A stretch of DNA of 64,000 nt, from the sequence record OR896822.1, one strand, 5' to 3'. The translations under genes and the position numbers were made by a program. The notes under the pieces are model-generated. The model had not been told where the DNA came from, did not search any database, and saw nothing but the letters and a program-made list of their open reading frames with translations. This DNA comes from Salmonella phage vB_SenS-3. Below, piece after piece: positions 31,786 to 45,199 of the stretch (the first letter of the stretch is position 1; the number at the start of each line of letters is the position of its first letter).

Positions 31786-32235
31786 ATGAAGGCAGCTTTG
31801 CTTTTAATAGCTGCCCTAACCTATAGCTTCAATAGTCATGCTACCTACGACGCTAAACAGATTGATTGCATTGCAAAAAATGTCTATTTTGAGAGCCGAG
31901 GTGAGGGCACGAAGGGAATGGTTGCAGTTGCACAGGTCACCAAAAACCGTGTTAACTCTGGTACATTCCCGGATTCTTACTGTAAAGTAGTATATCAGTC
32001 TAACCAGTTCTCTTGGGTATCTAAGAGACCAAAAGTTGATAAAACCGATGCGGCTTGGCAAACTGCTAAGAATGTAGCTAGAGTGATATACTACGTTGAT
32101 TTACCCCATGATCCAACATATGGAGCGTTATACTTCCATAGTGGTAAAGAAAAGCCGTACTGGACGAAAACGTTCAAGAAAACAACTAAAATTCAAGGCC
32201 ACACGTTCTATAAGCCTGTGACTAAGAAAATTTAA
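31786..32235 (+). CDS. secreted SleB-like cell wall hydrolase domain protein
   Basis: signal peptide MKAALLLIAALTYSFNSHA; Hydrolase_2-like NVYFESRGEG...VAQVTKNR; ATG 31786 with RBS GGAG. Confidence 0.65.
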   Translation: MKAALLLIAALTYSFNSHATYDAKQIDCIAKNVYFESRGEGTKGMVAVAQVTKNRVNSGTFPDSYCKVVYQSNQFSWVSKRPKVDKTDAAWQTAKNVARVIYYVDLPHDPTYGALYFHSGKEKPYWTKTFKKTTKIQGHTFYKPVTKKI

Positions 32236-32918: not shown

Positions 32919-32927
32919 AAATTAATT

Positions 32928-32956
32928 TGCTAAACGCTTCAAAATTCTGTATAATA
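32928..32956 (+). promoter_or_regulatory. sigma70-type early promoter directly abutting the HNH endonuclease ORF
   Basis: -35 TTGCTA, 17 bp, -10 TATAAT; ATG of 32962 lies 6 nt after the -10 with no RBS. Confidence 0.6.
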
Positions 32957-32961
32957 TATTC

Positions 32962-33444
32962 ATGAAAAGGAAAGAATACCCTACTAAAGAAATACTTGAA
33001 AAATATTTTGTAGCTGATCCTGATAATGGGATACTATATAGGAAAACAAAGAAAGGTTTGAAAGAGTGTTGTGCCAATAATAAGAAATCACATCCAGATG
33101 TGGGATTTCAGGGCGACACCTATCAACTGCATGTCTTATTATTTATTATGTACTATGGATATATGCCTGAAGAAGTAGATCATAAGGATACTAATCCTAG
33201 AAATAATAGGAAAAATAATCTAAGGGACGCCTCTAGATCGCAAAATAATGCGAATAGAAACCAACAATGCAATAATACTTCTTGGTACAAAGGAGTAAGT
33301 TGGGAAGGCTCTTCCTTGAGATACCAAGTAAGACATGAAGGAAAAAATTACAGTAAAAGAGGGTTTAAAACTGCGGAAGAGGCTTTCGAGGCCTCTAAGA
33401 TATTAAGAGAATCCTTACATAAAGAATTTACTAACTTTGGTTAG
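32962..33444 (+). CDS. HNH homing endonuclease with AP2 domain
   Basis: 160 aa; HNH core EEVDHKDTNPRNNRKNNL...N; AP2-like WYKGVSWEGSSLRYQVRHEGKNYSKRGFKTAEEA. Confidence 0.75.
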   Translation: MKRKEYPTKEILEKYFVADPDNGILYRKTKKGLKECCANNKKSHPDVGFQGDTYQLHVLLFIMYYGYMPEEVDHKDTNPRNNRKNNLRDASRSQNNANRNQQCNNTSWYKGVSWEGSSLRYQVRHEGKNYSKRGFKTAEEAFEASKILRESLHKEFTNFG

Positions 33445-34074
33445 TAATAGTGGGGTGCCGAAACCACTTATGTAACAACACTGCCGTCCTAGTATAATAG
33501 GTATTATTAGGGCTTCACCGCCTGAAGATGTGGGTTCGAGTCCCACGGTCGGAAAGAGTTGGATAACTGGTGCTTCTAATGGCGAAGCAATCGCAGGCAG
33601 TTGCGCACTGCCAAAACCACGCGGTAGTTGGTTCCAGGCTAACCAACCACTCTTGAAAAGTATATACTACGGTTTTGCTTGTTCAGGAAGCTTCGCATCG
33701 AAAATCGGAGGTGCGATTTTATCAGACCGCGTGGAGGACGTCTCTCCGTTAAGTGACGAAAAGTGGGACGATTCAGGTAGAGCTGGATATGGAACACCTA
33801 TACATATGCGGAGTGCGCACAAAGCATATTGCGGTGGTACTAAACGAAATTAGGAGTCATGACCTGCACAAGTTTAGTATGTCATAACCGATGTACATTC
33901 AGTACAAAAACCACTGAAGCTAAGATAGATAGTCACCTTGACTTAAACTGGAAGATATTGTCTGACGGAAGGGCTGCAGAGCTTAATCTGAGGGGGCTGA
34001 CCCTACCTACCGTCGGGTATCTTTAAGAGTTCTTACGAGAACTCTTAAAGATACCTAAACATTAAGGAATACTG

Positions 34075-34584
34075 ATGAATCTAGGAACTACTTGTATATT
34101 TGATCACAGAGAAATGTGTTGCCCACATATTCTGTATGTAGTTCACTTTGCAGAACGTCTTACTCTGGATGAAGCTCGTGAGAAAATGGGTGGAATTACT
34201 GGATATGATTTCCGTGAAGGTGAATACTTTAGCATTGCTCTTGATTACATTGACAATACCCGTCTCTATCATCTAGTGCAGCTAGGGGAAGAAACTGATG
34301 AAGTGAAAATGGCGAAAGATACTCTACGTCGTTATCGTCCTCAGATTCTAGAACGTACACTTCGTGGAGAACGTAGTGACCCATTGTTCTTGAAGTGCTA
34401 TGACGCAGATGTTAATGAGTATCTAGGACAGCAACGGTTTTACACTGAAATCAAAGAGTTTGTTCGTGAAAAATACGACGCTCTACTAATTGATTCCAGA
34501 GCACGACGTGCAGCTAAAAATGCTGAGAAATCTGCTAAAGCAGCACTAGAAAGCCAAACCAAACTGAACGAAATCGTTAAGTGA
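34075..34584 (+). CDS. hypothetical protein
   Basis: 169 aa ORF ending 8 nt before tRNA-Arg. Confidence 0.55.
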   Translation: MNLGTTCIFDHREMCCPHILYVVHFAERLTLDEAREKMGGITGYDFREGEYFSIALDYIDNTRLYHLVQLGEETDEVKMAKDTLRRYRPQILERTLRGERSDPLFLKCYDADVNEYLGQQRFYTEIKEFVREKYDALLIDSRARRAAKNAEKSAKAALESQTKLNEIVK

Positions 34585-34592
34585 TCTAATTT

Positions 34593-34667
34593 CGGGGTGT
34601 AGTCTAAGGGATAGGCAGGAGTCTTCTAAATTCCTTTATGCAGGTTCGAATCCTGTCACCTCGGCCA
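34593..34667 (+). tRNA. tRNA-Arg (anticodon TCT)
   Basis: hand-folded cloverleaf: acceptor CGGGGTG/CACCTCG, anticodon loop CTTCTAA, T-loop TTCGAAT, CCA encoded. Confidence 0.75.
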
Positions 34668-34693
34668 ATCTTATTACCTGTTAGGAAAATAAA

Positions 34694-34894
34694 ATGAAAA
34701 CACGATATATAGTAAAAGTAGTAGGTGAACATTCGCAAGTAAATACCACGGATGTTACAGCACTAGCATTTGAGGTAGTCTCCGGTATAGTCATATTTCA
34801 TAATGGGGATATCAAAGCTCCTGAATTTGCTGTGGATGCTGGCCTGTTTATTTCTGCAACTAAAGTAACTGTAGTAGCTAACTCTTCTAAATAA
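34694..34894 (+). CDS. hypothetical protein
   Basis: 66 aa ORF with RBS AGGAAA. Confidence 0.45.
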   Translation: MKTRYIVKVVGEHSQVNTTDVTALAFEVVSGIVIFHNGDIKAPEFAVDAGLFISATKVTVVANSSK

Positions 34895-34905
34895 TAAGGA
34901 AATAT

Positions 34906-35850
34906 ATGTTTACTAAAAACACTAAAGAACTGACTTCTGAGCAAAAAGTAATTCGTACTATTAAACGTTGGGGTGTTGGTGCTGCTATTAGTCTTGGTGC
35001 TCTTATTCTGGCTCTCAATTCCTATACAGTTGTTCAGGATGGTACTGTTAAGACCCAAACCTTCCTGGGTAAAGTTAGCCCTAATCCTGTATTGCCAGGC
35101 TTCCATATTGTTAACCCATTTGCTTCTTTTGATACTTTTAGTACGAAAGATATTTCCATGAAACTGGATAAACTTCAGGTTCCTAGCCAGGATAAGTTTA
35201 AGTCCACTGTTGACATTACCGTTATGTTGCAGTTTGATGGTGCTAAAGCTCCTATGAACCGTGTTAACGCAGGTACTCAGGATCAAGCTCTGAACAAGTA
35301 CGTTGAAGAGAAGATGCTGTCTACGATTCGTGAGTTTGGTAAGTCTGTACCAAAAGCACAAGATCTGTTCGACGCTAAGATTCAGGCTCAACTGCAAACC
35401 GCTATTCAGCAAGAAGTAGAAGAGTATGCGCGTCCTTATGGTTACACCGTTAAGCAAGTATTCCTTCAGGATATTACTCTGCCACCGGTAATCATGGAAC
35501 AGGTACAGAACACCAAAGTTCGTGAAGAACAAGTTAACGCTGCAAAAGCTGAACTGGCTCGTGTTGAACAAGAAGCACAGCAGAAAGTTAAGCAAGCTGA
35601 GGCGGATCGTTCCGCTCGTGAAAACATGGCAGTAGCTAACGAACGTGACGCAGATGCTAAACTGTACGCAGCTAAGAAAGAAGCTGAAGCTAACGCCGCT
35701 CTGCAACGTACCATTACTCCTGAAATGATTCGTTGGAAGCAGCTGGAAGTTGAAATGCTTCGTGCTGAAAAATACCAAGGTGGTGTACCACAGACTGTTG
35801 TCGGTACTGGCTACGATGGTCAAATGATCATGGATATGCGTAACAAGTAA
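34906..35850 (+). CDS. SPFH/band-7 (prohibitin/HflC-like) membrane protein
   Basis: 314 aa; N-terminal TM helix, SPFH-like core, C-terminal Ala/Glu-rich coiled coil. Confidence 0.7.
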   Translation: MFTKNTKELTSEQKVIRTIKRWGVGAAISLGALILALNSYTVVQDGTVKTQTFLGKVSPNPVLPGFHIVNPFASFDTFSTKDISMKLDKLQVPSQDKFKSTVDITVMLQFDGAKAPMNRVNAGTQDQALNKYVEEKMLSTIREFGKSVPKAQDLFDAKIQAQLQTAIQQEVEEYARPYGYTVKQVFLQDITLPPVIMEQVQNTKVREEQVNAAKAELARVEQEAQQKVKQAEADRSARENMAVANERDADAKLYAAKKEAEANAALQRTITPEMIRWKQLEVEMLRAEKYQGGVPQTVVGTGYDGQMIMDMRNK

Positions 35851-35873
35851 TAGTTACACGTAATCTTCGAACC

Positions 35874-35908
35874 AAGCCCGCGTTTCCTTCGAGAGCGCGG
35901 GCTTTTCT
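35874..35908 (+). terminator. rho-independent terminator after SPFH gene
   Basis: AAGCCCGCG...CGCGGGCTT hairpin followed by TTCTGT. Confidence 0.55.
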
Positions 35909-36054
35909 GTATTTAAGGCAAAAGAAAAAGCCCATAAGTTATTCAACTAAGGTCTTTAGTATTTAATTCTTTAGAATCATATACTATTATTGCAGCAACA
36001 ACGTGCTAACCTTAAGTGCCCTGCGATTTTCCTCTAAAAAGTTAAAAAATTCGA

Positions 36055-36083
36055 TTGCTTGAATGCTAAATTCTCTGTATAAT
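36055..36083 (+). promoter_or_regulatory. sigma70-type early promoter
   Basis: -35 TTGCTT, 17 bp, -10 TATAAT, conserved leader TATAAATTTGAGAGAGGAATCAAAT. Confidence 0.6.
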
Positions 36084-36113
36084 ATATTTATAAATTTGAG
36101 AGAGGAATCAAAT

Positions 36114-37169
36114 ATGATTAAGACTGGTCTAGTAATTGGTAAGTTCGCACCATTAACGCGTGGTCATATTAACCTAATAAACACAGCAGCAACTATGTGT
36201 GAACGAGTTATTGTTGTAGTTAGTCATGATAATCGTTGGCTGGATAAGCAGAACACACGTGATAAGGAAGTATTACAGTTAAAGAATCGACTTCGTTGGT
36301 TAGAACAAACTTACGCGGATATTGAGCACATTTCGGTAGAGTACATTATTGAAGATGATATTCCTGAATATCCGAATGGTTGGCCGGAATATGCTAGAAT
36401 CCTTAATGAAAATTACGGACATTTGCCTGAGATCACCGTTTTCTCTAGCGAACTAGACTATGATGCAGAATATAAGAAATATCTGCCGAAGTTTGGTCAT
36501 TATATTGTAGATTCTGATCGGACTCGTGTTCCAATCTCAGCTACAATGATTCGTAATGATCTTATGAAGTATTGGGAGTTTCTTCCTAGCGTAGTTCGTA
36601 AAGATTACGTGCGTAAGGTTGTAATCATTGGGACTGAAAGCTCGGGAAAGACTACTTTAACAAAATACCTTGCGAAGCTATACAACACTTCGTGGGTAGA
36701 AGAATATGGTCGAACGTATTGTGAAGTTGATCTAGTTGGTAACGAAAATCTGCTTACCAGCGAAGATTATAGTAAAATTGCGTTCAGACACAAAGAGCTA
36801 GAGTTTGAAGCAGAACGTACTGCAAATAAGATCATGTTTGTGGATACAAATGCTTTTATTACTGAGTTCTACCACAGACTTTATGAACATAGTAAGAATC
36901 CTGTGGTTACAGCAATTGCAAAAGAAGAACATTATGATTTAGTAATTGTTCTAGCGCCTACTGTCAAGTGGGTAGATGATGGTTTACGTATTAACTCCGA
37001 TCGTTCAATTACTTCTGAACTATTCGAGCAGATGAAGAAAGAATTTCCAAATCAGTTCCCTGAAGGGCGTACTGTTTACATCGACTCTCCGGACTACAAA
37101 GTTCGTATGGACGAAGCAGTAAACGCAGTAGACTGGCTGATTCATCACTTTAACGTTGGAGAGTTTTAA
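36114..37169 (+). CDS. nadR: NadR-like bifunctional NMN adenylyltransferase / ribosylnicotinamide kinase
   Basis: N-terminal GKFAPLTRGHINLI (nucleotidyltransferase HxGH-type); C-terminal Walker A GTESSGKTT; ATG 36114 after conserved leader RBS. Confidence 0.8.
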   Translation: MIKTGLVIGKFAPLTRGHINLINTAATMCERVIVVVSHDNRWLDKQNTRDKEVLQLKNRLRWLEQTYADIEHISVEYIIEDDIPEYPNGWPEYARILNENYGHLPEITVFSSELDYDAEYKKYLPKFGHYIVDSDRTRVPISATMIRNDLMKYWEFLPSVVRKDYVRKVVIIGTESSGKTTLTKYLAKLYNTSWVEEYGRTYCEVDLVGNENLLTSEDYSKIAFRHKELEFEAERTANKIMFVDTNAFITEFYHRLYEHSKNPVVTAIAKEEHYDLVIVLAPTVKWVDDGLRINSDRSITSELFEQMKKEFPNQFPEGRTVYIDSPDYKVRMDEAVNAVDWLIHHFNVGEF

Positions 37170-37170
37170 T

Positions 37171-37827
37171 ATGACTAACTATCTCGTAAATGACTTTAAA
37201 AACTGGAAACCTCTGGAATATCTGTGGCTGTTCATAGCGGTTGTCTTCATTAGTTTAGCAAACTATAATGGTACAGCTCTAGATTGGGCTACTGCAATAA
37301 CCAATGTGGTTTGTGTTATTCTGGTTGCAAAAGGACGTATTTCCAACTATATTTGGGGCTTAGTGGGTGTTCTTACATATGGTATTACAGCTTTAAACGC
37401 AGATCTTTATGGTAACGCTGCACTAAACCTGCTATACTACGTTCCTATGCAGTTTTATGGAATGTACTTATGGCATAAAAATAAGCCAAGTAATCTGCCA
37501 GATGTTCCAACTAAGGTTCTGACTAAAGCCCAAGCTCTGCTGACTCTAGGGATTCTAGCAGTAGCCACGTTAGGGTATGGTAGTTTCTTAGCTACTACGG
37601 CTGATCCATTTCCAATGTTGGATGCATTTACTGCTGTAGGTAGTGTGATCGCTATGTGGCTTATGGTTAAGCAATATGCCGAGCAGTGGCTGATCTGGAT
37701 TGCTATTAACATTGGTACTGTGTACATTTGGCTTGTAACTGCTCAATCTACAGGTGCATCTTATGCAATCCTAGCAATGTGGCTAGTATTCTTAGGTAAC
37801 TCTATTATAGGAGCCTATAAAGGATAA
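37171..37827 (+). CDS. pnuC: PnuC-like nicotinamide riboside transporter
   Basis: polytopic membrane protein with W/G-rich helices; adjacent and co-oriented with nadR; ATG 37171 after RBS GGAGAG. Confidence 0.7.
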   Translation: MTNYLVNDFKNWKPLEYLWLFIAVVFISLANYNGTALDWATAITNVVCVILVAKGRISNYIWGLVGVLTYGITALNADLYGNAALNLLYYVPMQFYGMYLWHKNKPSNLPDVPTKVLTKAQALLTLGILAVATLGYGSFLATTADPFPMLDAFTAVGSVIAMWLMVKQYAEQWLIWIAINIGTVYIWLVTAQSTGASYAILAMWLVFLGNSIIGAYKG

Positions 37828-37854
37828 TTTGTACGCGTTAACAAATAAAGTAGT

Positions 37855-37878
37855 TATAGCCCTCGCTTAGAGGGCTAT
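37855..37878 (+). terminator. putative terminator hairpin after pnuC
   Basis: ATAGCCCTC-GCTTA-GAGGGCTAT perfect 9-bp hairpin; weak T-run. Confidence 0.45.
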
Positions 37879-37895
37879 TATACAGAAATTTTCAC

Positions 37896-37924
37896 TTGCT
37901 TAATATAGAAAATTTCTGTATAAT
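37896..37924 (+). promoter_or_regulatory. sigma70-type early promoter
   Basis: -35 TTGCTT, 17 bp, -10 TATAAT; leader identical to the nadR promoter leader. Confidence 0.6.
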
Positions 37925-37954
37925 ATATTTATAAATTTGAGAGAGGAATCAAAT

Positions 37955-38251
37955 ATGAAACGCATTGTACTTGCATTGACTCTAGTATCTACTTCTGTAT
38001 TTGCTGCTCCACAACAGGAACTTTGTCAAGTTCAAGTTTGTAATAAGCTAGAACGATTTACTCTAGACATTTGGTCCCACATTAAAGATAATATGGGTGA
38101 ACAGTGTTTTGATATTGTTCTGCCAAAAGAACAAGCTGTTCCTGGGGCTGTTCTCAGCTCAGAATCACGTTGGTGGCAAGGTTCTTCTATCAACCCAACT
38201 AAGAAGTCAGTGACACGTATCAAACAAGTATATCAGTGCAACGTTCAGTAA
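37955..38251 (+). CDS. secreted hypothetical protein
   Basis: signal peptide MKRIVLALTLVSTSVFAAP; paired cysteines. Confidence 0.5.
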   Translation: MKRIVLALTLVSTSVFAAPQQELCQVQVCNKLERFTLDIWSHIKDNMGEQCFDIVLPKEQAVPGAVLSSESRWWQGSSINPTKKSVTRIKQVYQCNVQ

Positions 38252-38259
38252 AATTTCAC

Positions 38260-38288
38260 TTGCTTAATGCCTAAATTTTCTGTATAAT
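38260..38288 (+). promoter_or_regulatory. sigma70-type early promoter
   Basis: -35 TTGCTT, 17 bp, -10 TATAAT. Confidence 0.6.
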
Positions 38289-38321
38289 ATATTCATAAAT
38301 TTGGAAGATTAGGAACTATTT

Positions 38322-38831
38322 ATGTTAGACTATGAGTCTATACTTTATAGATTCCGTTTAGAAGATGGTGTACTGGTGTGGAATCCGCTCTCCGGAAACT
38401 CCAGAGAGGAGAAGATATTTAATACTAAGTTTGCCAATAAACCTGCGGGATCTTTGCACAAAAGCTCTGGGTATATCAGAGTTAACGTTGATCACCAAGA
38501 TTACTTAGCTCATATCATAGTATTTATACTATATTATGGGTATAGGCCGGAAATGGTTGATCATAAAGACTGCAATAAGTTAAATATACATCCTTTAAAT
38601 TTAAGAGCAGCGGATAGTACCACTAATACTCATAATGCTAGTAAATCTTCTAGGAATACTAGCGGATTTAAGGGAGTATCCTACCACAAAGCATCTGGTC
38701 AGTGGCAGGGTAGAATAATGTTTAAAGGTAAGTCATACTCCGCAGGGCTGCACAGTACTCCTGAAGCAGCAAATGAAGCTCTAATTCAACTGAGAGAGAA
38801 ACTTCATGGGGAATATGCCCGAAATAATTAA
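38322..38831 (+). CDS. HNH homing endonuclease with AP2 domain
   Basis: 169 aa; HNH core PEMVDHKDCNKLNIHPLNL; AP2-like GFKGVSYHKASGQWQGRIMFKGKSY; stop abuts tRNA-Ser. Confidence 0.75.
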   Translation: MLDYESILYRFRLEDGVLVWNPLSGNSREEKIFNTKFANKPAGSLHKSSGYIRVNVDHQDYLAHIIVFILYYGYRPEMVDHKDCNKLNIHPLNLRAADSTTNTHNASKSSRNTSGFKGVSYHKASGQWQGRIMFKGKSYSAGLHSTPEAANEALIQLREKLHGEYARNN

Positions 38832-38920
38832 GGAAGAATAGCATAACGGTATTGCAGCAGATTGCTAATCTGTCGGTTTGAAACATAGCCTTGTGGGTTC
38901 GATTCCCACTTCTTCCGCCA
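38832..38920 (+). tRNA. tRNA-Ser (anticodon GCT), long variable arm
   Basis: acceptor GGAAGAA/TTCTTCC perfect; anticodon loop TTGCTAA; T-arm GTGGG-TTCGATT-CCCAC; CCA encoded. Confidence 0.8.
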
Positions 38921-38925
38921 AATTT

Positions 38926-39003
38926 GGTTCTCAAGCTCATTTGGTATGAGCCGTCGCCTCATAAGCGAAAGGTAGGTAGGTTCGAATCCTCCGGGAGCCA
39001 CCA
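38926..39003 (+). tRNA. tRNA with CAT anticodon (Met or Ile2)
   Basis: acceptor GGTTCTC/GGGAGCC with G-U pairs; D-stem GCTC/GAGC; anticodon loop CTCATAA; CCA encoded. Confidence 0.7.
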
Positions 39004-39152
39004 GATAACTAGGAGACTTTATGTCACGCTTTCACGAAATTAAGCAAGAACTAGAAGAATGTATGTGTACTGAATGTTGGGGTTCTGGCACTTAATGTTC
39101 CAGTGACTGGATTCCCTGATTGGCTGCAAGGTTACGAACTCTAACAAAATTT

Positions 39153-39238
39153 GGATCTGTGGTGGAATTGGCAATACACACCATGCTTAAAACGTGGCGC
39201 TTAAATGATTGAGGGTTCGAGCCCCTCCAGATCCACCA
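39153..39238 (+). tRNA. tRNA-Leu (anticodon TAA), long variable arm
   Basis: acceptor GGATCTG/CAGATCC perfect; anticodon stem CCATG/CGTGG, loop CTTAAAA; T-arm GAGGG-TTCGAGC-CCCTC; CCA encoded. Confidence 0.8.
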
Positions 39239-39399
39239 AATTAAGGAAGTAAAAATGAAATCTATTAAGAAAGCTATTCGTGAACTTATCCGTTGTCGCT
39301 TCCATAGCATCAAGGCTTCAACTAATGGTACTACTTACGATCGCTACGATCGCTATGATCCTAAGTTTGGCTTACATTCTAAATAACTGGAGAAAACAA

Positions 39400-39606
39400 A
39401 TGGCTAATCCTGAAATTACGGCACAACGTTTTATGCTGAAAGGAATTATTGCTGAAGCAGGCGTGACACAAGAAGTGGAAGATTTCCATAAGCAGTTCCT
39501 AAATATTCTCACTCAAGCCAAAGAGCTAGGAGAGAAAGAACATGGCGCGGCTATTATGGCAATCACATTGGTTGGGCTTGATCTGGCAGAAGAATCAGGA
39601 GTTTAA
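39400..39606 (+). CDS. hypothetical protein
   Basis: start set at internal ATG (MANPEITAQ...) with RBS; upstream part of the listed ORF overlaps tRNA-Leu. Confidence 0.4.
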   Translation: MANPEITAQRFMLKGIIAEAGVTQEVEDFHKQFLNILTQAKELGEKEHGAAIMAITLVGLDLAEESGV

Positions 39607-39636
39607 CTTCTCCAAGCAGAAATTTTAAAAATGTAC

Positions 39637-39666
39637 TTGCTTTTTACTTAAGATTTCTGCTATAAT
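39637..39666 (+). promoter_or_regulatory. sigma70-type early promoter
   Basis: -35 TTGCTT, 18 bp, -10 TATAAT. Confidence 0.55.
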
Positions 39667-39695
39667 AGTTATATAAGTTGATGAGAGGAATCAGA

Positions 39696-39971
39696 ATGTT
39701 AAAACGTTTTGCAGCAACTGGTATTGAAAGCTCAGTATGTAAATCCTGGGGTGGTTGGGAAGGTGAGATCGAGTGGCTTTATTTCTACAATGTAGAACTT
39801 CTTCCAGAGATCAAAGCTCAATGTATTAAGGCTGGTATGGCTCCTGATGCTACGGCTGATGTTGAAATCAGCATGAATAAGCTAGAGGGTCGAGTAGTCA
39901 CTGTTACTGATGAAGGTGAAGAGGTATTCGAACTTCCATTCACTTTGAAAGTCACTCCTTCATTTGATTAA
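39696..39971 (+). CDS. hypothetical protein
   Basis: start at ATG after conserved leader RBS GAGAGGAATCAGA. Confidence 0.5.
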   Translation: MLKRFAATGIESSVCKSWGGWEGEIEWLYFYNVELLPEIKAQCIKAGMAPDATADVEISMNKLEGRVVTVTDEGEEVFELPFTLKVTPSFD

Positions 39972-40008
39972 CTGATACAGCACTTGAGCAAGTTCTTTAA
40001 AATTTGAC

Positions 40009-40038
40009 TTGCTCAAGTGCCTTAAAACTTGATATAAT
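40009..40038 (+). promoter_or_regulatory. sigma70-type promoter heading a tRNA transcription unit
   Basis: -35 TTGCTC, 18 bp, -10 TATAAT; about 120 nt leader then tRNA-Tyr. Confidence 0.55.
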
Positions 40039-40162
40039 AGTTACCTAATTTGGAAACATATCTGAATGAGAAGTAATTAAGCGAGTTGCTTTGAGGGATA
40101 AAGTCAGGATAGCCGGAAATATTCCACCTTGAGTTTAACCGACTTACTTTTCATTCAAATAT

Positions 40163-40243
40163 GGGGGATTGGCTCAGTGGCGACGGCGCCTGGCTGTAGA
40201 CCGGGTATATCACGCGGAGGTTCGAGTCCTCCATCCCCCACCA
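40163..40243 (+). tRNA. tRNA-Tyr (anticodon GTA), long variable arm
   Basis: acceptor GGGGGAT/ATCCCCC perfect; anticodon stem CCTGG/CCGGG, loop CTGTAGA; T-arm GGAGG-TTCGAGT-CCTCC; CCA encoded. Confidence 0.75.
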
Positions 40244-40251
40244 AAATTAAT

Positions 40252-40326
40252 GCACCTATCGTCTAATGGTTAGGACATCAGGATTTCAATCTGAGAATTG
40301 AACTCCGATTCTCCGTGGGTGTGCCA
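40252..40326 (+). tRNA. tRNA-Glu (anticodon TTC)
   Basis: acceptor GCACCTA/TGGGTGT; D-stem GTCT/GGAC; anticodon stem TCAGG/TCTGA, loop ATTTCAA; atypical T-arm; CCA encoded. Confidence 0.6.
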
Positions 40327-40335
40327 ATTAATAAT

Positions 40336-40406
40336 TGGGGTACGCATAGGTTGCTAGTGGGCCTCCAAAACCCATGAAAAGGTTTCGAATACCTTTACCC
40401 CTGCCA
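40336..40406 (+). tRNA. tRNA-Trp (anticodon CCA), atypical
   Basis: T-arm AAGGT-TTCGAAT-ACCTT perfect; acceptor 6 bp with U1/U72 mismatch; anticodon loop CTCCAAA; CCA encoded. Confidence 0.55.
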
Positions 40407-40412
40407 ATATTT

Positions 40413-40487
40413 GCACCTTTAGCTGAGATGGATTAGCGCTTGCCTGAAGAGCTTGAGAGGTTCGTTCAATTCGAACAGGGTGCACCA
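40413..40487 (+). tRNA. tRNA, probable Phe (anticodon GAA); anticodon stem imperfect
   Basis: acceptor GCACCTT/AGGGTGC; T-arm GTTCG-TTCAATT-CGAAC perfect; loop CTGAAGA fits Phe but stem has two U-U mismatches; CCA encoded. Confidence 0.55.
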
Positions 40488-40504
40488 ATTTGAAGGAGAT
40501 GCTG

Positions 40505-40777
40505 ATGCATCCTGAAAACTTCTTTATATACTGTACTAGTCCTTTGCTTAAACGCCGGATTAATAAAGTATATCACTACAGAGCTAGTCAACAGCCTTAT
40601 GTTTATGATTCTAGTGGAGATCATATTCCACTTGAGCAACTAGGGACTGATTATATGGTTTTGAAGCACTTTAATGAGGCGAAGATCTCTAGCGTTCATA
40701 ACCGACAAAACTCTAAAACGTGGTGGCATAAGAAGCGTAAGAAAGGCATCAAATTTCTTAAAAATGTAGTTGCTTAA
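40505..40777 (+). CDS. hypothetical basic protein
   Basis: ATG 40505 six nt after RBS AAGGAG, immediately downstream of the tRNA cluster. Confidence 0.45.
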   Translation: MHPENFFIYCTSPLLKRRINKVYHYRASQQPYVYDSSGDHIPLEQLGTDYMVLKHFNEAKISSVHNRQNSKTWWHKKRKKGIKFLKNVVA

Positions 40778-40798
40778 ATCCTTAAAGTTCTGTATAAT
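40770..40798 (+). promoter_or_regulatory. sigma70-type early promoter
   Basis: -35 TTGCTT, 17 bp, -10 TATAAT; -35 overlaps stop region of 40505..40777. Confidence 0.6.
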
Positions 40799-40826
40799 TA
40801 TTACATAAATTGAACTGGAGAACTAG

Positions 40827-41015
40827 ATGAAAGCACCTAAACCGAAATTAGTTAAGTTCGACTGCTGTGATACTGAAATCTTATTTACTAAGTTTGGTGA
40901 ATTTAAGATGTGTGAATGTGGAACATGTGGTTACGATCATGGTGATGGATATTATTGCAGAACCCTAGGGCCTTCTGAACTAATCCACTTCTCATGGCCG
41001 GAAAGTAAAGAATAA
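40827..41015 (+). CDS. small Cys-rich (zinc-ribbon-like) protein
   Basis: 62 aa; CC...CEC..CGYDH..YC cysteine pattern. Confidence 0.45.
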   Translation: MKAPKPKLVKFDCCDTEILFTKFGEFKMCECGTCGYDHGDGYYCRTLGPSELIHFSWPESKE

Positions 41016-41083
41016 TACGACCGTTGGCTGAATGGCTTAGGCGGAGGCCTGCAAAACCTCCTTATGTGAGTTCGAATCTCATG
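41008..41083 (+). tRNA. tRNA-Cys (anticodon GCA)
   Basis: acceptor CGACCGT/GCGGTCG; anticodon loop CTGCAAA; T-arm GTGAG-TTCGAAT-CTCAT; CCA encoded; 5' end overlaps stop of 40827..41015. Confidence 0.7.
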
Positions 41084-41235
41084 CGGTCGTCCAATTTGCT
41101 GAAAGAATTGTTAAATCAATTCAGGCACGCGTAGGAACACTGCCTCAGTAATTGAAAGATGAGGCACGGTTTGGAGAGGTATGCCGCTACACGCTACGGT
41201 GCTAACTCCGTCTAGGTGAAAATCCTAGTCAGCAA

Positions 41236-41318
41236 TATAAATTTAGGGTCGTTAGCCAAGCGGTTTGGCGGTGGACTGTTAATCCATGTCGAAAGACAAC
41301 GTAGGTTCGAATCCTACA
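41236..41318 (+). tRNA. tRNA with GTT anticodon (Asn-like) and 13-nt variable arm
   Basis: acceptor GGGTCGT/ACGGCCC; anticodon stem GTGGA/TCCAT, loop CTGTTAA; T-arm GTAGG-TTCGAAT-CCTAC perfect; CCA encoded. Confidence 0.6.
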
Positions 41319-41431
41319 CGGCCCGCCATATTCTATGTAGGATTAAGTAAACCGGTAGCCAACCAGCTATCATTACTGATATCGAATTCAGTCACAGATA
41401 CCATTTTTCACTAACAACTGAGGAAATAGAT

Positions 41432-41617
41432 ATGACAACTCGTGCAATTGCTCGACTAGAAGCTGATCGTGATAATCTGATTAATAATATTAAGGTTCGT
41501 GGTAATATTATTAAGGCTCTGAAAGCTGAACTTCTTGAAGAACTTCAAGGTCAAGTAGAGCGTCGTGAAGCTCTAAAAGAGGTTGAGGAAGCTATCGAAA
41601 AACTCAAGGCTGAATAA
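41432..41617 (+). CDS. hypothetical coiled-coil protein
   Basis: 61 aa ORF with RBS GAGGAAA. Confidence 0.45.
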   Translation: MTTRAIARLEADRDNLINNIKVRGNIIKALKAELLEELQGQVERREALKEVEEAIEKLKAE

Positions 41618-41620
41618 ATT

Positions 41621-42202
41621 ATGCACGGAATATCCTTACCCATTCCAGGGTTTGAGGAGTACTTAGTAAGTTTGGATGGGTTAGTATTTAGTATCAAATC
41701 AAACAAAATACTAACCCCAATAACCAGTAATTACGGATACTTATCTATACGTCTCCATAAAAATGGTCAACAGAGAAATACCGGTGTACATAGGATTTTA
41801 GCATGTGCATTTAAGAAATTACCAAGTCTAGACTCTGAACTAGAAGTTGACCATATTAACACAGACATTACTTATTGGGGTCTTAATAACTTACAAGTGC
41901 TCACAAAAGAGCAGCATCTAGAAAAGACTTTAAAAGATAAAGGATTTAGTAAACTAAACCATGATAATTGTTGTAAGGATTGTGGTAAAGCTATTTCTTT
42001 AAAAGCTGAAAAATGTCAGGAGTGCTCTTCACATAAACCAAAAGATATCTCTATAACTAAAGAAATAATCGAGGTTACAGTAAGAGAGCTAGGCTGGTCA
42101 GGTGCAGGGAGAAAGTTAAATTATTCAGATAATGGGTTGCGTAAAAGATACACTTCTTTAGGAGGCAATCCTAAAGAACTTAAAAAGTTAAAGGTACTAT
42201 AG
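41621..42202 (+). CDS. HNH homing endonuclease (NUMOD-like N-terminus)
   Basis: 193 aa; motifs HRILACAF...VDHINTD...NNLQ; Cys-rich C-terminal region; stop codon overlaps 5' end of tRNA-Asp. Confidence 0.7.
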   Translation: MHGISLPIPGFEEYLVSLDGLVFSIKSNKILTPITSNYGYLSIRLHKNGQQRNTGVHRILACAFKKLPSLDSELEVDHINTDITYWGLNNLQVLTKEQHLEKTLKDKGFSKLNHDNCCKDCGKAISLKAEKCQECSSHKPKDISITKEIIEVTVRELGWSGAGRKLNYSDNGLRKRYTSLGGNPKELKKLKVL

Positions 42203-44108: not shown

Positions 44109-44187
44109 GGGGAATGGGTCTGCTTGGAGTGGACACCTCGCTTGCACCGAGGATATCAGAAGAGTTCGAATCTCTTATTCTCCACCA
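44109..44187 (+). tRNA. tRNA-Ala (anticodon TGC), copy 1
   Basis: acceptor with G3-U70 wobble pair (Ala identity element); anticodon stem CCTCG/CGAGG, loop CTTGCAC; CCA encoded. Confidence 0.65.
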
Positions 44188-44882: not shown

Positions 44883-45125
44883 ATGAAAGTCAAGATTATG
44901 ATGTTGGATTTAGCTAATGATAAGTTTTTCTTGCGTCATACATTCCCTAGTAAGCAAGCTTTAGAGTTTCATATCAAGTACGCAATAGGCATGAAACTTC
45001 CTGAGCGAGAAATATTTGATAAAGCATGTGATACTGGAGTTATTTATGTATGGCAAACAACCTATCATGATAATCCAGAAGATCTTCGAAAAGAAGTAGA
45101 ACAAATACTAGAAGATAGGACGTAG
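44883..45125 (+). CDS. hypothetical protein
   Basis: 80 aa ORF; 3' end overlaps the start of tRNA-Ser(TGA). Confidence 0.5.
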   Translation: MKVKIMMLDLANDKFFLRHTFPSKQALEFHIKYAIGMKLPEREIFDKACDTGVIYVWQTTYHDNPEDLRKEVEQILEDRT

Positions 45126-45199
45126 TGGTATGTAACCGGTCTTGAAAACCGGCCCGCTGTAGTGATACGGTGATGGTTCGACTCCATTATCTTCTGCCA
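45109..45199 (+). tRNA. tRNA-Ser (anticodon TGA), long variable arm
   Basis: acceptor AGAAGAT/ATCTTCT perfect; anticodon stem CCGGT/ACCGG perfect, loop CTTGAAA; T-arm GATGG-TTCGACT-CCATT; CCA encoded. Confidence 0.75.

Follow-up and report, generated by a model that had tools for sequence, protein, structure and literature searches.

The cages formed by SPFH proteins such as HflK/C, prohibitin, stomatin, flotillin and erlin have been solved only recently, and the effect of these cages on the membrane patch that they enclose is debated. HflK/C, to our knowledge the only SPFH proteins of bacteria for which enclosure of the protease FtsH has been shown, have a historical phage connection, as the name hfl derives from the 'high frequency of lysogenisation' of lambda. 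In phages themselves, SPFH/Band 7 Pfam matches were tabulated as early as 2006 for the T4-like phages 44RR, Aeh1 and RB43 (PMC1524935), and the reason for a phage to carry such a gene was called unclear in 2026 (PMC13239085). Here, we analysed the SPFH/band-7 gene of Salmonella phage vB_SenS-3, located at 34906..35850 on the + strand of a 64,000-nucleotide (nt) stretch of sequence record OR896822.1 (in the following called the window). We propose that the gene encodes a membrane scaffold, a homo-oligomeric SPFH assembly that would enclose a client in the host inner membrane. By analogy with the solved cages, we put the probability of this reading at roughly 0.55.

The open reading frame (ORF) codes for 314 amino acids plus stop and begins with an ATG located 5 nt downstream of a Shine-Dalgarno sequence, TAAGGA (34895-34900, +), read directly from the sequence. 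The original prediction, made from the letters alone, had named an SPFH/band-7 protein. This identity was confirmed by the Pfam Band_7 profile (PF01145), which matches residues 50-224 with 70.2 bits (E 2.9e-19), above the Pfam gathering score of 23.6 bits that we used as membership threshold. Conservation of the protein in 737 phage records found by tblastn rules out a chance ORF. Over 1.6 kb including the gene, the window is 100% identical to Salmonella phage gmork (MT074463), a T5-like Epseptimavirus of the Demerecviridae, and to several sister phages. The gmork counterpart, gmork_104, likewise 100% identical, is annotated as a 'putative SPFH domain-containing protein/band 7 family protein'. 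Gene and family assignment are already in GenBank, and the finding in this window is in this respect an ordinary one: the annotation is correct and was previously known, and it is refined here to a QmcA/prohibitin-like protein that is not a lipoprotein.

We built an AlphaFold model of the protein on a 20-sequence alignment, with a mean predicted local distance difference test score (pLDDT) of 78. Its elements are, in order, a helix (residues 11-38), a beta-rich SPFH domain (40-191), a very long helix (194-269), a further helix (272-289) and a C-terminal tail that forms short strands with low pLDDT in the monomer. The N-terminal tail (residues 1-21; 34906..34968, +) is basic and predicted to be cytoplasmic. 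It precedes a hydrophobic signal-anchor or transmembrane (TM) helix, WGVGAAISLGALILALN (residues 22-38; 34969..35019, +), in agreement with the N-terminal TM helix that had been read from the sequence. The best 17-residue Kyte-Doolittle window of the protein starts at residue 27 and scores 1.79, and the hydrophobic segment is predicted to anchor the protein in the membrane. The SPFH alpha/beta domain (residues 40-191; 35023..35478, +) was modelled with pLDDT values of 80-92 and contains the motif VPSQDK at residues 92-97, which is invariant in the alignment columns of the family. The helices that follow (residues 194-289; 35485..35772, +) are indeed rich in Ala, Glu and Gln, as had been claimed, at 19.8%, 15.6% and 9.4%, respectively. 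In solved SPFH complexes, the counterpart of this helical region builds the wall of the cage. Length differences among family members in this region come in blocks of 11 or 22 residues. The C-terminal tail, GGVPQTVVG..MIMDMR (residues 290-314; 35773..35847, +), is conserved in the family alignment. From its position, which matches that of the C-terminal segment in published cage structures, we infer that it corresponds to the segment closing the top of SPFH cages.

When the model was compared with the PDB by Foldseek, SPFH cage protomers aligned over 263-311 columns with a probability of 1.00. The matches comprised erlin1/2 (E 1.5e-14), prohibitin 1/2, stomatin, HflK/C, QmcA and flotillin, the last ranking under the other SPFH classes, and more distantly the major vault protein. 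As modelled, the phage protein possesses all elements of an SPFH protomer of the cage-forming type, namely a basic N-tail, a single TM helix, the SPFH domain, ~95 residues of Ala/Glu-rich helix and a conserved C-tail.

A different label has become attached to this family. The 314-amino-acid protein matches phrog_200 (E 1.2e-84), which is named 'lipoprotein' in PHROG. The RefSeq entry of its T5 homolog T5.080 reads "lipoprotein ... contains single transmembrane domain", and many other homologs are called 'lipoprotein' as well. From this label, a role resembling that of T5 Llp, which would block FhuA and lead to superinfection exclusion, has been speculatively proposed (PMC12887010). The window protein, however, contains 0 cysteines, so it has neither a lipobox with its +1 Cys nor a residue for lipid modification, and we judge from the sequence that the label is wrong for this copy. 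Cysteine is also absent from 156 of the 251 family members with a clear TM segment, and among the sampled homologs only P0111, from a Morganella phage, has a lipobox-like N-terminus. Moreover, the predicted fold is that of a 314-amino-acid SPFH protomer, unlike a small outer-membrane lipoprotein. We therefore rejected a lipoprotein or Llp-like role for this protein, which appears extremely improbable. The practical value of this result lies in correcting the widespread "lipoprotein" annotation together with the FhuA-blocking Llp idea derived from it.

To which branch of the SPFH proteins the phage protein is closest was addressed by several searches. In a sequence search of the PDB, the best match was QmcA, with E 3.7e-5 for the single sequence and E 4.1e-7 for the profile, followed by prohibitin 1/2 (E 1.5e-4 to 2.4e-4). 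No HflK or HflC chains were matched in this search, even at E<=10. We further aligned the family profile by hhalign directly with the four E. coli K-12 paralogs QmcA, HflC, HflK and YqiK. QmcA gave the sole whole-length alignment among them (probability 96%, E 4.7e-9, 252 columns, 24% identity). HflC reached 65% over just 44 N-terminal columns, HflK 6.5% and the flotillin YqiK 3.6%. NCBIfam models of any kind, those for HflK/HflC included, gave no match at E<=1, and several phage homologs carry the annotation 'PHB domain' or 'prohibitin family'. By sequence, the protein is closest to QmcA, stomatin and prohibitin, not to HflK/C or flotillin, and the resemblance to 'HflK/C or flotillin' that the original prediction had suggested was not supported in this form. 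Membership in HflK/C was excluded by the missing sequence-level similarity and the lack of a tandem paralog pair. Membership in the flotillins was excluded by the length of 314 compared with about 420-550 amino acids, the hhalign result for YqiK and the lower Foldseek rank.

The orientation of the protein in the membrane can be predicted from its flanking charges. The 21 residues before the hydrophobic segment contain six Lys or Arg (K/R) and two Glu, giving the N-tail a net charge of +4, and the 15 residues after it contain two K/R. The N-flank is richer in K/R than the C-flank in 92% of 118 close homologs. By the same measure, the phage protein groups with HflK/HflC, which have basic N-tails, and is separated from QmcA and YqiK, which lack them. 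HflK/C lie N-in with periplasmic domains, whereas QmcA and YqiK face the cytoplasm. Based on its basic N-tail and the positive-inside rule, the phage protein is predicted to be N-in/C-out with a periplasmic SPFH domain, as in HflC and, topologically, prohibitin.

The charge pattern also bears on a cytoplasm-facing scaffold of the QmcA/stomatin type (N-out/C-in), which would form an inner-leaflet microdomain, for example around transporters or other membrane proteins of phage or host, instead of acting in the periplasm. Such a scaffold would agree with QmcA being the best sequence match in both the PDB profile search and hhalign, and with the position of the SPFH gene next to a PnuC transporter gene in Epseptimavirus. 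Nevertheless, the basic N-tail is unlike QmcA and YqiK, and an NfeD partner gene is missing, whereas qmcA is paired with ybbJ. Furthermore, the SPFH gene is separated from nadR-pnuC by a terminator and another promoter, and in most T5-like phages with an SPFH gene a NadR or PnuC gene is absent within 10 kb. We consider this arrangement unlikely.

To look for partner proteins, we took nine SPFH lineages and clustered every ORF encoded on the strand of the SPFH gene at up to +/-4 kb from it. The only family common to more than three of the nine lineages was the SPFH gene itself, and neither an NfeD gene nor a second SPFH paralog was found in this range. Because neither type of partner gene lies nearby, the protein most likely acts as a homo-oligomer, in contrast to HflK/HflC, PHB1/2 and QmcA-YbbJ.

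The two ORFs directly upstream of the SPFH gene gave no Pfam match. The nearer one, a 66-amino-acid ORF (34694..34894, +), belongs to phrog_11609 of unknown function (E 1.5e-47). We considered it as an NfeD-like partner and rejected it: it has no Pfam match, T5 and the majority of homologous loci lack it, and in other lineages no homolog of it adjoins the SPFH gene. Its product is not hydrophobic, and the ORF occurs in few loci (the window, L001, L030 and L054; L numbers denote our homologous loci), restricted to some Epseptimavirus genomes. This ORF is a local insertion relative to T5, not a conserved partner.

Directly after the SPFH gene, short hydrophobic ORFs of 30-72 amino acids with a single TM segment were observed in four other phage lineages (L002 3884-3982; L003 3941-4063; L004 3891-4109; L006 8942-9034). 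They occur in Roth26, SE131, Aeromonas phage 31 and an Aeromonas prophage and are mutually non-homologous, and the window has none at this position. A conserved small membrane peptide downstream of the SPFH gene is unproven. In three of the nine lineages, a gene for a SleB-like cell-wall hydrolase (Pfam Hydrolase_2) was found no more than a few kb from the SPFH gene. Its position in the window is 31786-32235 (+), at a distance of -2.7 kb; further copies are in L034-L038 and L060 (1-178). Elsewhere the distance is +0.4 to +1 kb (two lineages) or -6 kb (a distant 144-kb phage contig). The homolog in L035 has a signal-peptide-like N-terminus, as judged by eye.

The 737 tblastn records stem mainly from phages of Salmonella, Escherichia, Klebsiella, Aeromonas, Vibrio, Enterobacter, Cronobacter and Citrobacter, and the protein matches also include homologs from Proteus, Pantoea and Morganella phages. 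Carriers are T5-like phages, T4-like phages (RB43/RB16-like and 44RR/31) and Moazamivirus SE131. The nearest "chromosomal" copies, at ~50% identity, were found in Aeromonas caviae and Bacterioplanoides. They are placed between genes for a T7-type DNA polymerase or thymidylate synthase and a 5'-3' exonuclease, with a portal gene a few kb off, and these surroundings place them in T7-like prophages. A clearly cellular context is first reached at ~32% identity. We therefore rejected a cellular origin of the gene. A 144-kb phage-like contig carries a homolog at 30% identity. When 1.84 billion cluster representatives were searched exhaustively by phmmer, just 910 matched at E<=1e-3, which sets the clade well apart from the mainstream SPFH families of cells. 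Identity between phage families is 53-94% in the SPFH domain and 8-78% in the N-terminal 37 residues. This pattern fits horizontal transfer with strong purifying selection on the extramembrane part. These comparisons show a strongly conserved clade of SPFH proteins that is mostly phage-borne and was exchanged between unrelated lytic phage families. SPFH folds are present in other phages and in giant viruses, too.

The gene is accessory, and laboratory growth of T5 does not need its homolog. This follows from the sequenced, viable deletion mutant T5 st0, which joins wild-type position 33,680 to 41,879 and thereby lacks 33,681-41,878. T5.080, at 39,791-40,738, falls within this deletion, and no SPFH match was obtained in the st0 region. 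In addition, phage BF23 was reported without the gene (PMC12752171).

In the mechanism that we propose, the protein would insert into the host inner membrane in N-in/C-out orientation, with its SPFH domain and helices facing the periplasm, and would self-assemble alone into a homo-oligomeric ring or cage around a patch of this membrane. The cage could sequester or shield an inner-membrane client during infection. The net effect would be an altered turnover of membrane proteins or altered membrane integrity, which might benefit the phage in certain hosts or environments. As HflK/C and prohibitin both enclose FtsH-type AAA proteases, FtsH would be the client with the best precedent. Although plausible by this analogy, FtsH specifically as the client seems doubtful.

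Several points weigh against the proposed scaffold and its client. The PDB search and hhalign revealed no specific similarity to HflK/C, and any effect on FtsH would be non-essential because the gene is dispensable in T5 st0. The topology stands on the positive-inside rule as its single argument, and QmcA, the closest relative by sequence, is described as cytoplasm-facing. Finally, we found phage SPFH proteins mentioned in the literature in genome annotations only and came across no functional study.

A more far-reaching version of the proposal sees the partner-less, periplasm-facing cage as a portable module that is swapped among unrelated lytic phages and takes over an inner-membrane process. 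Two variants are possible: the cage might enclose or insulate FtsH in place of HflK/C, or it might shield the membrane from abortive-infection effectors. If the second were true, the repeated position of the SPFH gene beside genes for NAD+ salvage would mark an anti-defence neighbourhood. This extension we regard as quite unlikely.

Genes for NAD+ salvage were found next to the SPFH gene in several phages. In the window, genes for a NadR-like protein and PnuC (36114-37827) begin 267 nt downstream of the SPFH gene. In RB43-like T4-type phages, a NatV-like NMNAT/Nudix gene follows at +183 to +250 nt, and in Aeromonas T4-type phages a NatV-like gene is ~5 kb away. SE131 encodes Prs and NadV 1.9 kb downstream of the SPFH gene, and two 90-kb phages encode them 5-8 kb upstream of it. 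Besides the window, the loci concerned are L002 (4008-5066), L003/L059, L036, L038 and L051-L053. Some bacterial SPFH proteins act in membrane-stress responses, and this neighbourhood could point to a counter-defence or membrane-integrity factor, grouped with NAD+ salvage genes, that stabilises or repairs the inner membrane or traps pore-forming abortive-infection effectors, so that the infected cell would stay energised. The occurrence of three types of NAD salvage genes beside the SPFH gene in separate phage families would agree with such a role, as would the accessory and horizontally mobile nature of the SPFH gene. However, the adjacency was noticed post hoc, and accessory genes have a tendency to cluster in any case. 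A NAD gene is missing near the SPFH gene in most T5-like phages, in the T7-like prophages and in several further lineages. PADLOC gave no meaningful match, and we found no literature linking a phage-encoded SPFH protein to defence. We give this explanation little credence; the adjacency itself could be a real linkage or mere clustering of accessory genes.

The genomic context defines how the SPFH gene is probably expressed. A promoter scan identified an early sigma-70 promoter, TTGCTA-17-TATAAT (32927..32955, +), which is near-identical to T5 P16-17. In T5, the annotated P16-17 heads the homologous unit of RNAX, tRNA-Arg and T5.080, and the order of promoter P16-17, RNAX, tRNA-Arg, T5.080 and terminator is conserved in the alignment of the two phages. 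No + strand terminator was predicted between this promoter and 35874, and no convincing internal promoter was detected just upstream of the SPFH gene. Judged from this arrangement, the promoter at 32927-32955 most likely drives an operon ending with the SPFH gene, which would most likely be the last gene of a ~3-kb early operon that also carries a tRNA.

The first gene of this operon is an ORF for an HNH homing endonuclease of 160 amino acids (32962..33444, +; phrog_99, E 3.4e-44), the counterpart of which in gmork, gmork_101, is annotated as 'hypothetical'. A non-coding stretch of ~600 nt follows (33441..34060, +) that contains no convincing ORF and is homologous to both ends of T5 RNAX. By blastn, 33441-33687 corresponds to the 5' part of RNAX at 80% and 33929-34060 to its 3' part at 72% identity. 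RNAX is annotated in T5 as a 719-nt stable RNA of unknown function. Within this stretch lies a tRNA-like element (33482-33555, +), called 'tRNA-SeC(tca)' by ARAGORN and 'tRNA-OTHER' in gmork, with just 33 bits for the Rfam tRNA model. We also observed an AT-rich 13-bp hairpin there, at about 34020-34050. Next are an ORF of 169 amino acids (34075..34584, +) without Pfam or PHROG match, an insertion that is absent from T5 and present only in some Epseptimavirus loci, and a tRNA-Arg (tct) gene (34593..34667, +). The tRNA-Arg was detected by ARAGORN and Rfam and is 92% identical to the T5 tRNA-Arg directly before T5.080.

Downstream of the SPFH gene, a terminator scan identified an intrinsic terminator (35874..35914, +) in which the T-run TTTTCTGTATTT follows a G+C-rich hairpin with a stem of 12 bp (35874-35904). 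The hairpin has a folding free energy of -20.7 kcal/mol (z -3.98), and 0 of 200 shuffled sequences fold as well. The hairpin is also conserved in T5, where two of the stem pairs have both of their bases changed. Inside its 3' arm, a candidate T5-type nick site, GAGA/GCGC (35894..35895, +), aligns base for base with the T5 'major DNA single-chain interruption' at 39746/39747 (consensus Pu/GCGC). The motif RGCGC is scarce in the window, with 46 sites compared with 101 +/- 12 expected, and the sequence at 35894-35895 is probably a conserved single-strand nick site.

Further downstream, the nadR-like and pnuC genes are headed by a second T5-type promoter at about 36055-36083. The mechanically called ORF of the NadR-like gene starts at 36063. 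Since the -10 element of the promoter (TATAAT, 36078-36083) lies inside this extension, the true start is the ATG at 36114, which is also the start in gmork. The original prediction had placed the expression unit of the SPFH gene, with a terminator of its own, inside the tRNA cluster. This was partly right: the terminator is its own, and the promoter is most likely shared with the upstream genes. As to position, the gene lies at the upstream edge of the tRNA region, which comprises 28 genes according to ARAGORN: the tRNA-like element and tRNA-Arg are upstream of the SPFH gene and 26 tRNAs downstream. Rfam gave one additional tRNA match, at 40252-40323 (+; 35.2 bits), that ARAGORN did not list, and missed two of the 28 ARAGORN tRNAs (44109-44187 and 45110-45199).

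The phage clade represents a compact single-gene version of SPFH proteins, highly conserved and spread over T5-like, T4-like, Moazamivirus and T7-like phages. Its dispensability in the laboratory makes the gene easily deletable, offering a handle both on SPFH function and on the management of the host inner membrane by lytic phages.

Compared with known systems, the phage protein shares with HflK/HflC-FtsH of E. coli (PDB 7wi3, 7vhq, 9cz2) the protomer fold (Foldseek E 1e-11 to 2e-7) and a basic N-tail ahead of a single TM helix. Yet specific sequence similarity to HflK/HflC is undetectable, and a tandem gene pair there contrasts with one gene in the phage. Prohibitin 1/2 (PDB 8rrh, 9o9z) gives a long fold match (E 2e-12, 263-304 columns) and, with an N-terminal anchor and its bulk on the non-cytoplasmic side, has the topology predicted for the phage protein. 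It differs in being a hetero-oligomer of PHB1 and PHB2, compared with only one gene in the phage, and in sharing an identity of just 14-18%. Prohibitin also encloses m-AAA proteases of the mitochondrial inner membrane, whereas the protease link of the phage protein is one of analogy. The best sequence relative is QmcA (YbbK), the E. coli stomatin-type protein of the QmcA-YbbJ (NfeD) cage (PDB 8z5g), which is equal in length and in domain order, consisting of TM helix, SPFH domain, coiled coil and C-terminal tail. Here the identity is low (24%, a distant similarity), and the phage protein differs by its 21-residue basic N-tail, which QmcA lacks and which predicts the opposite orientation; qmcA adjoins ybbJ (NfeD), whereas no NfeD gene is near the phage gene. 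The T4-like homologs ORF098c, ORF064c and ORF139c of phages 44RR, Aeh1 and RB43 belong to the same phage clade as the window protein; in other phage families the N-terminal 37 residues are poorly conserved. T5.080 of T5 is 90% identical and occupies the same place, with tRNA-Arg ahead of it and the same terminator and nick site behind it; the window differs from T5 in the 169- and 66-amino-acid ORFs (ORF169 and ORF66) inserted upstream and in nadR-pnuC downstream.

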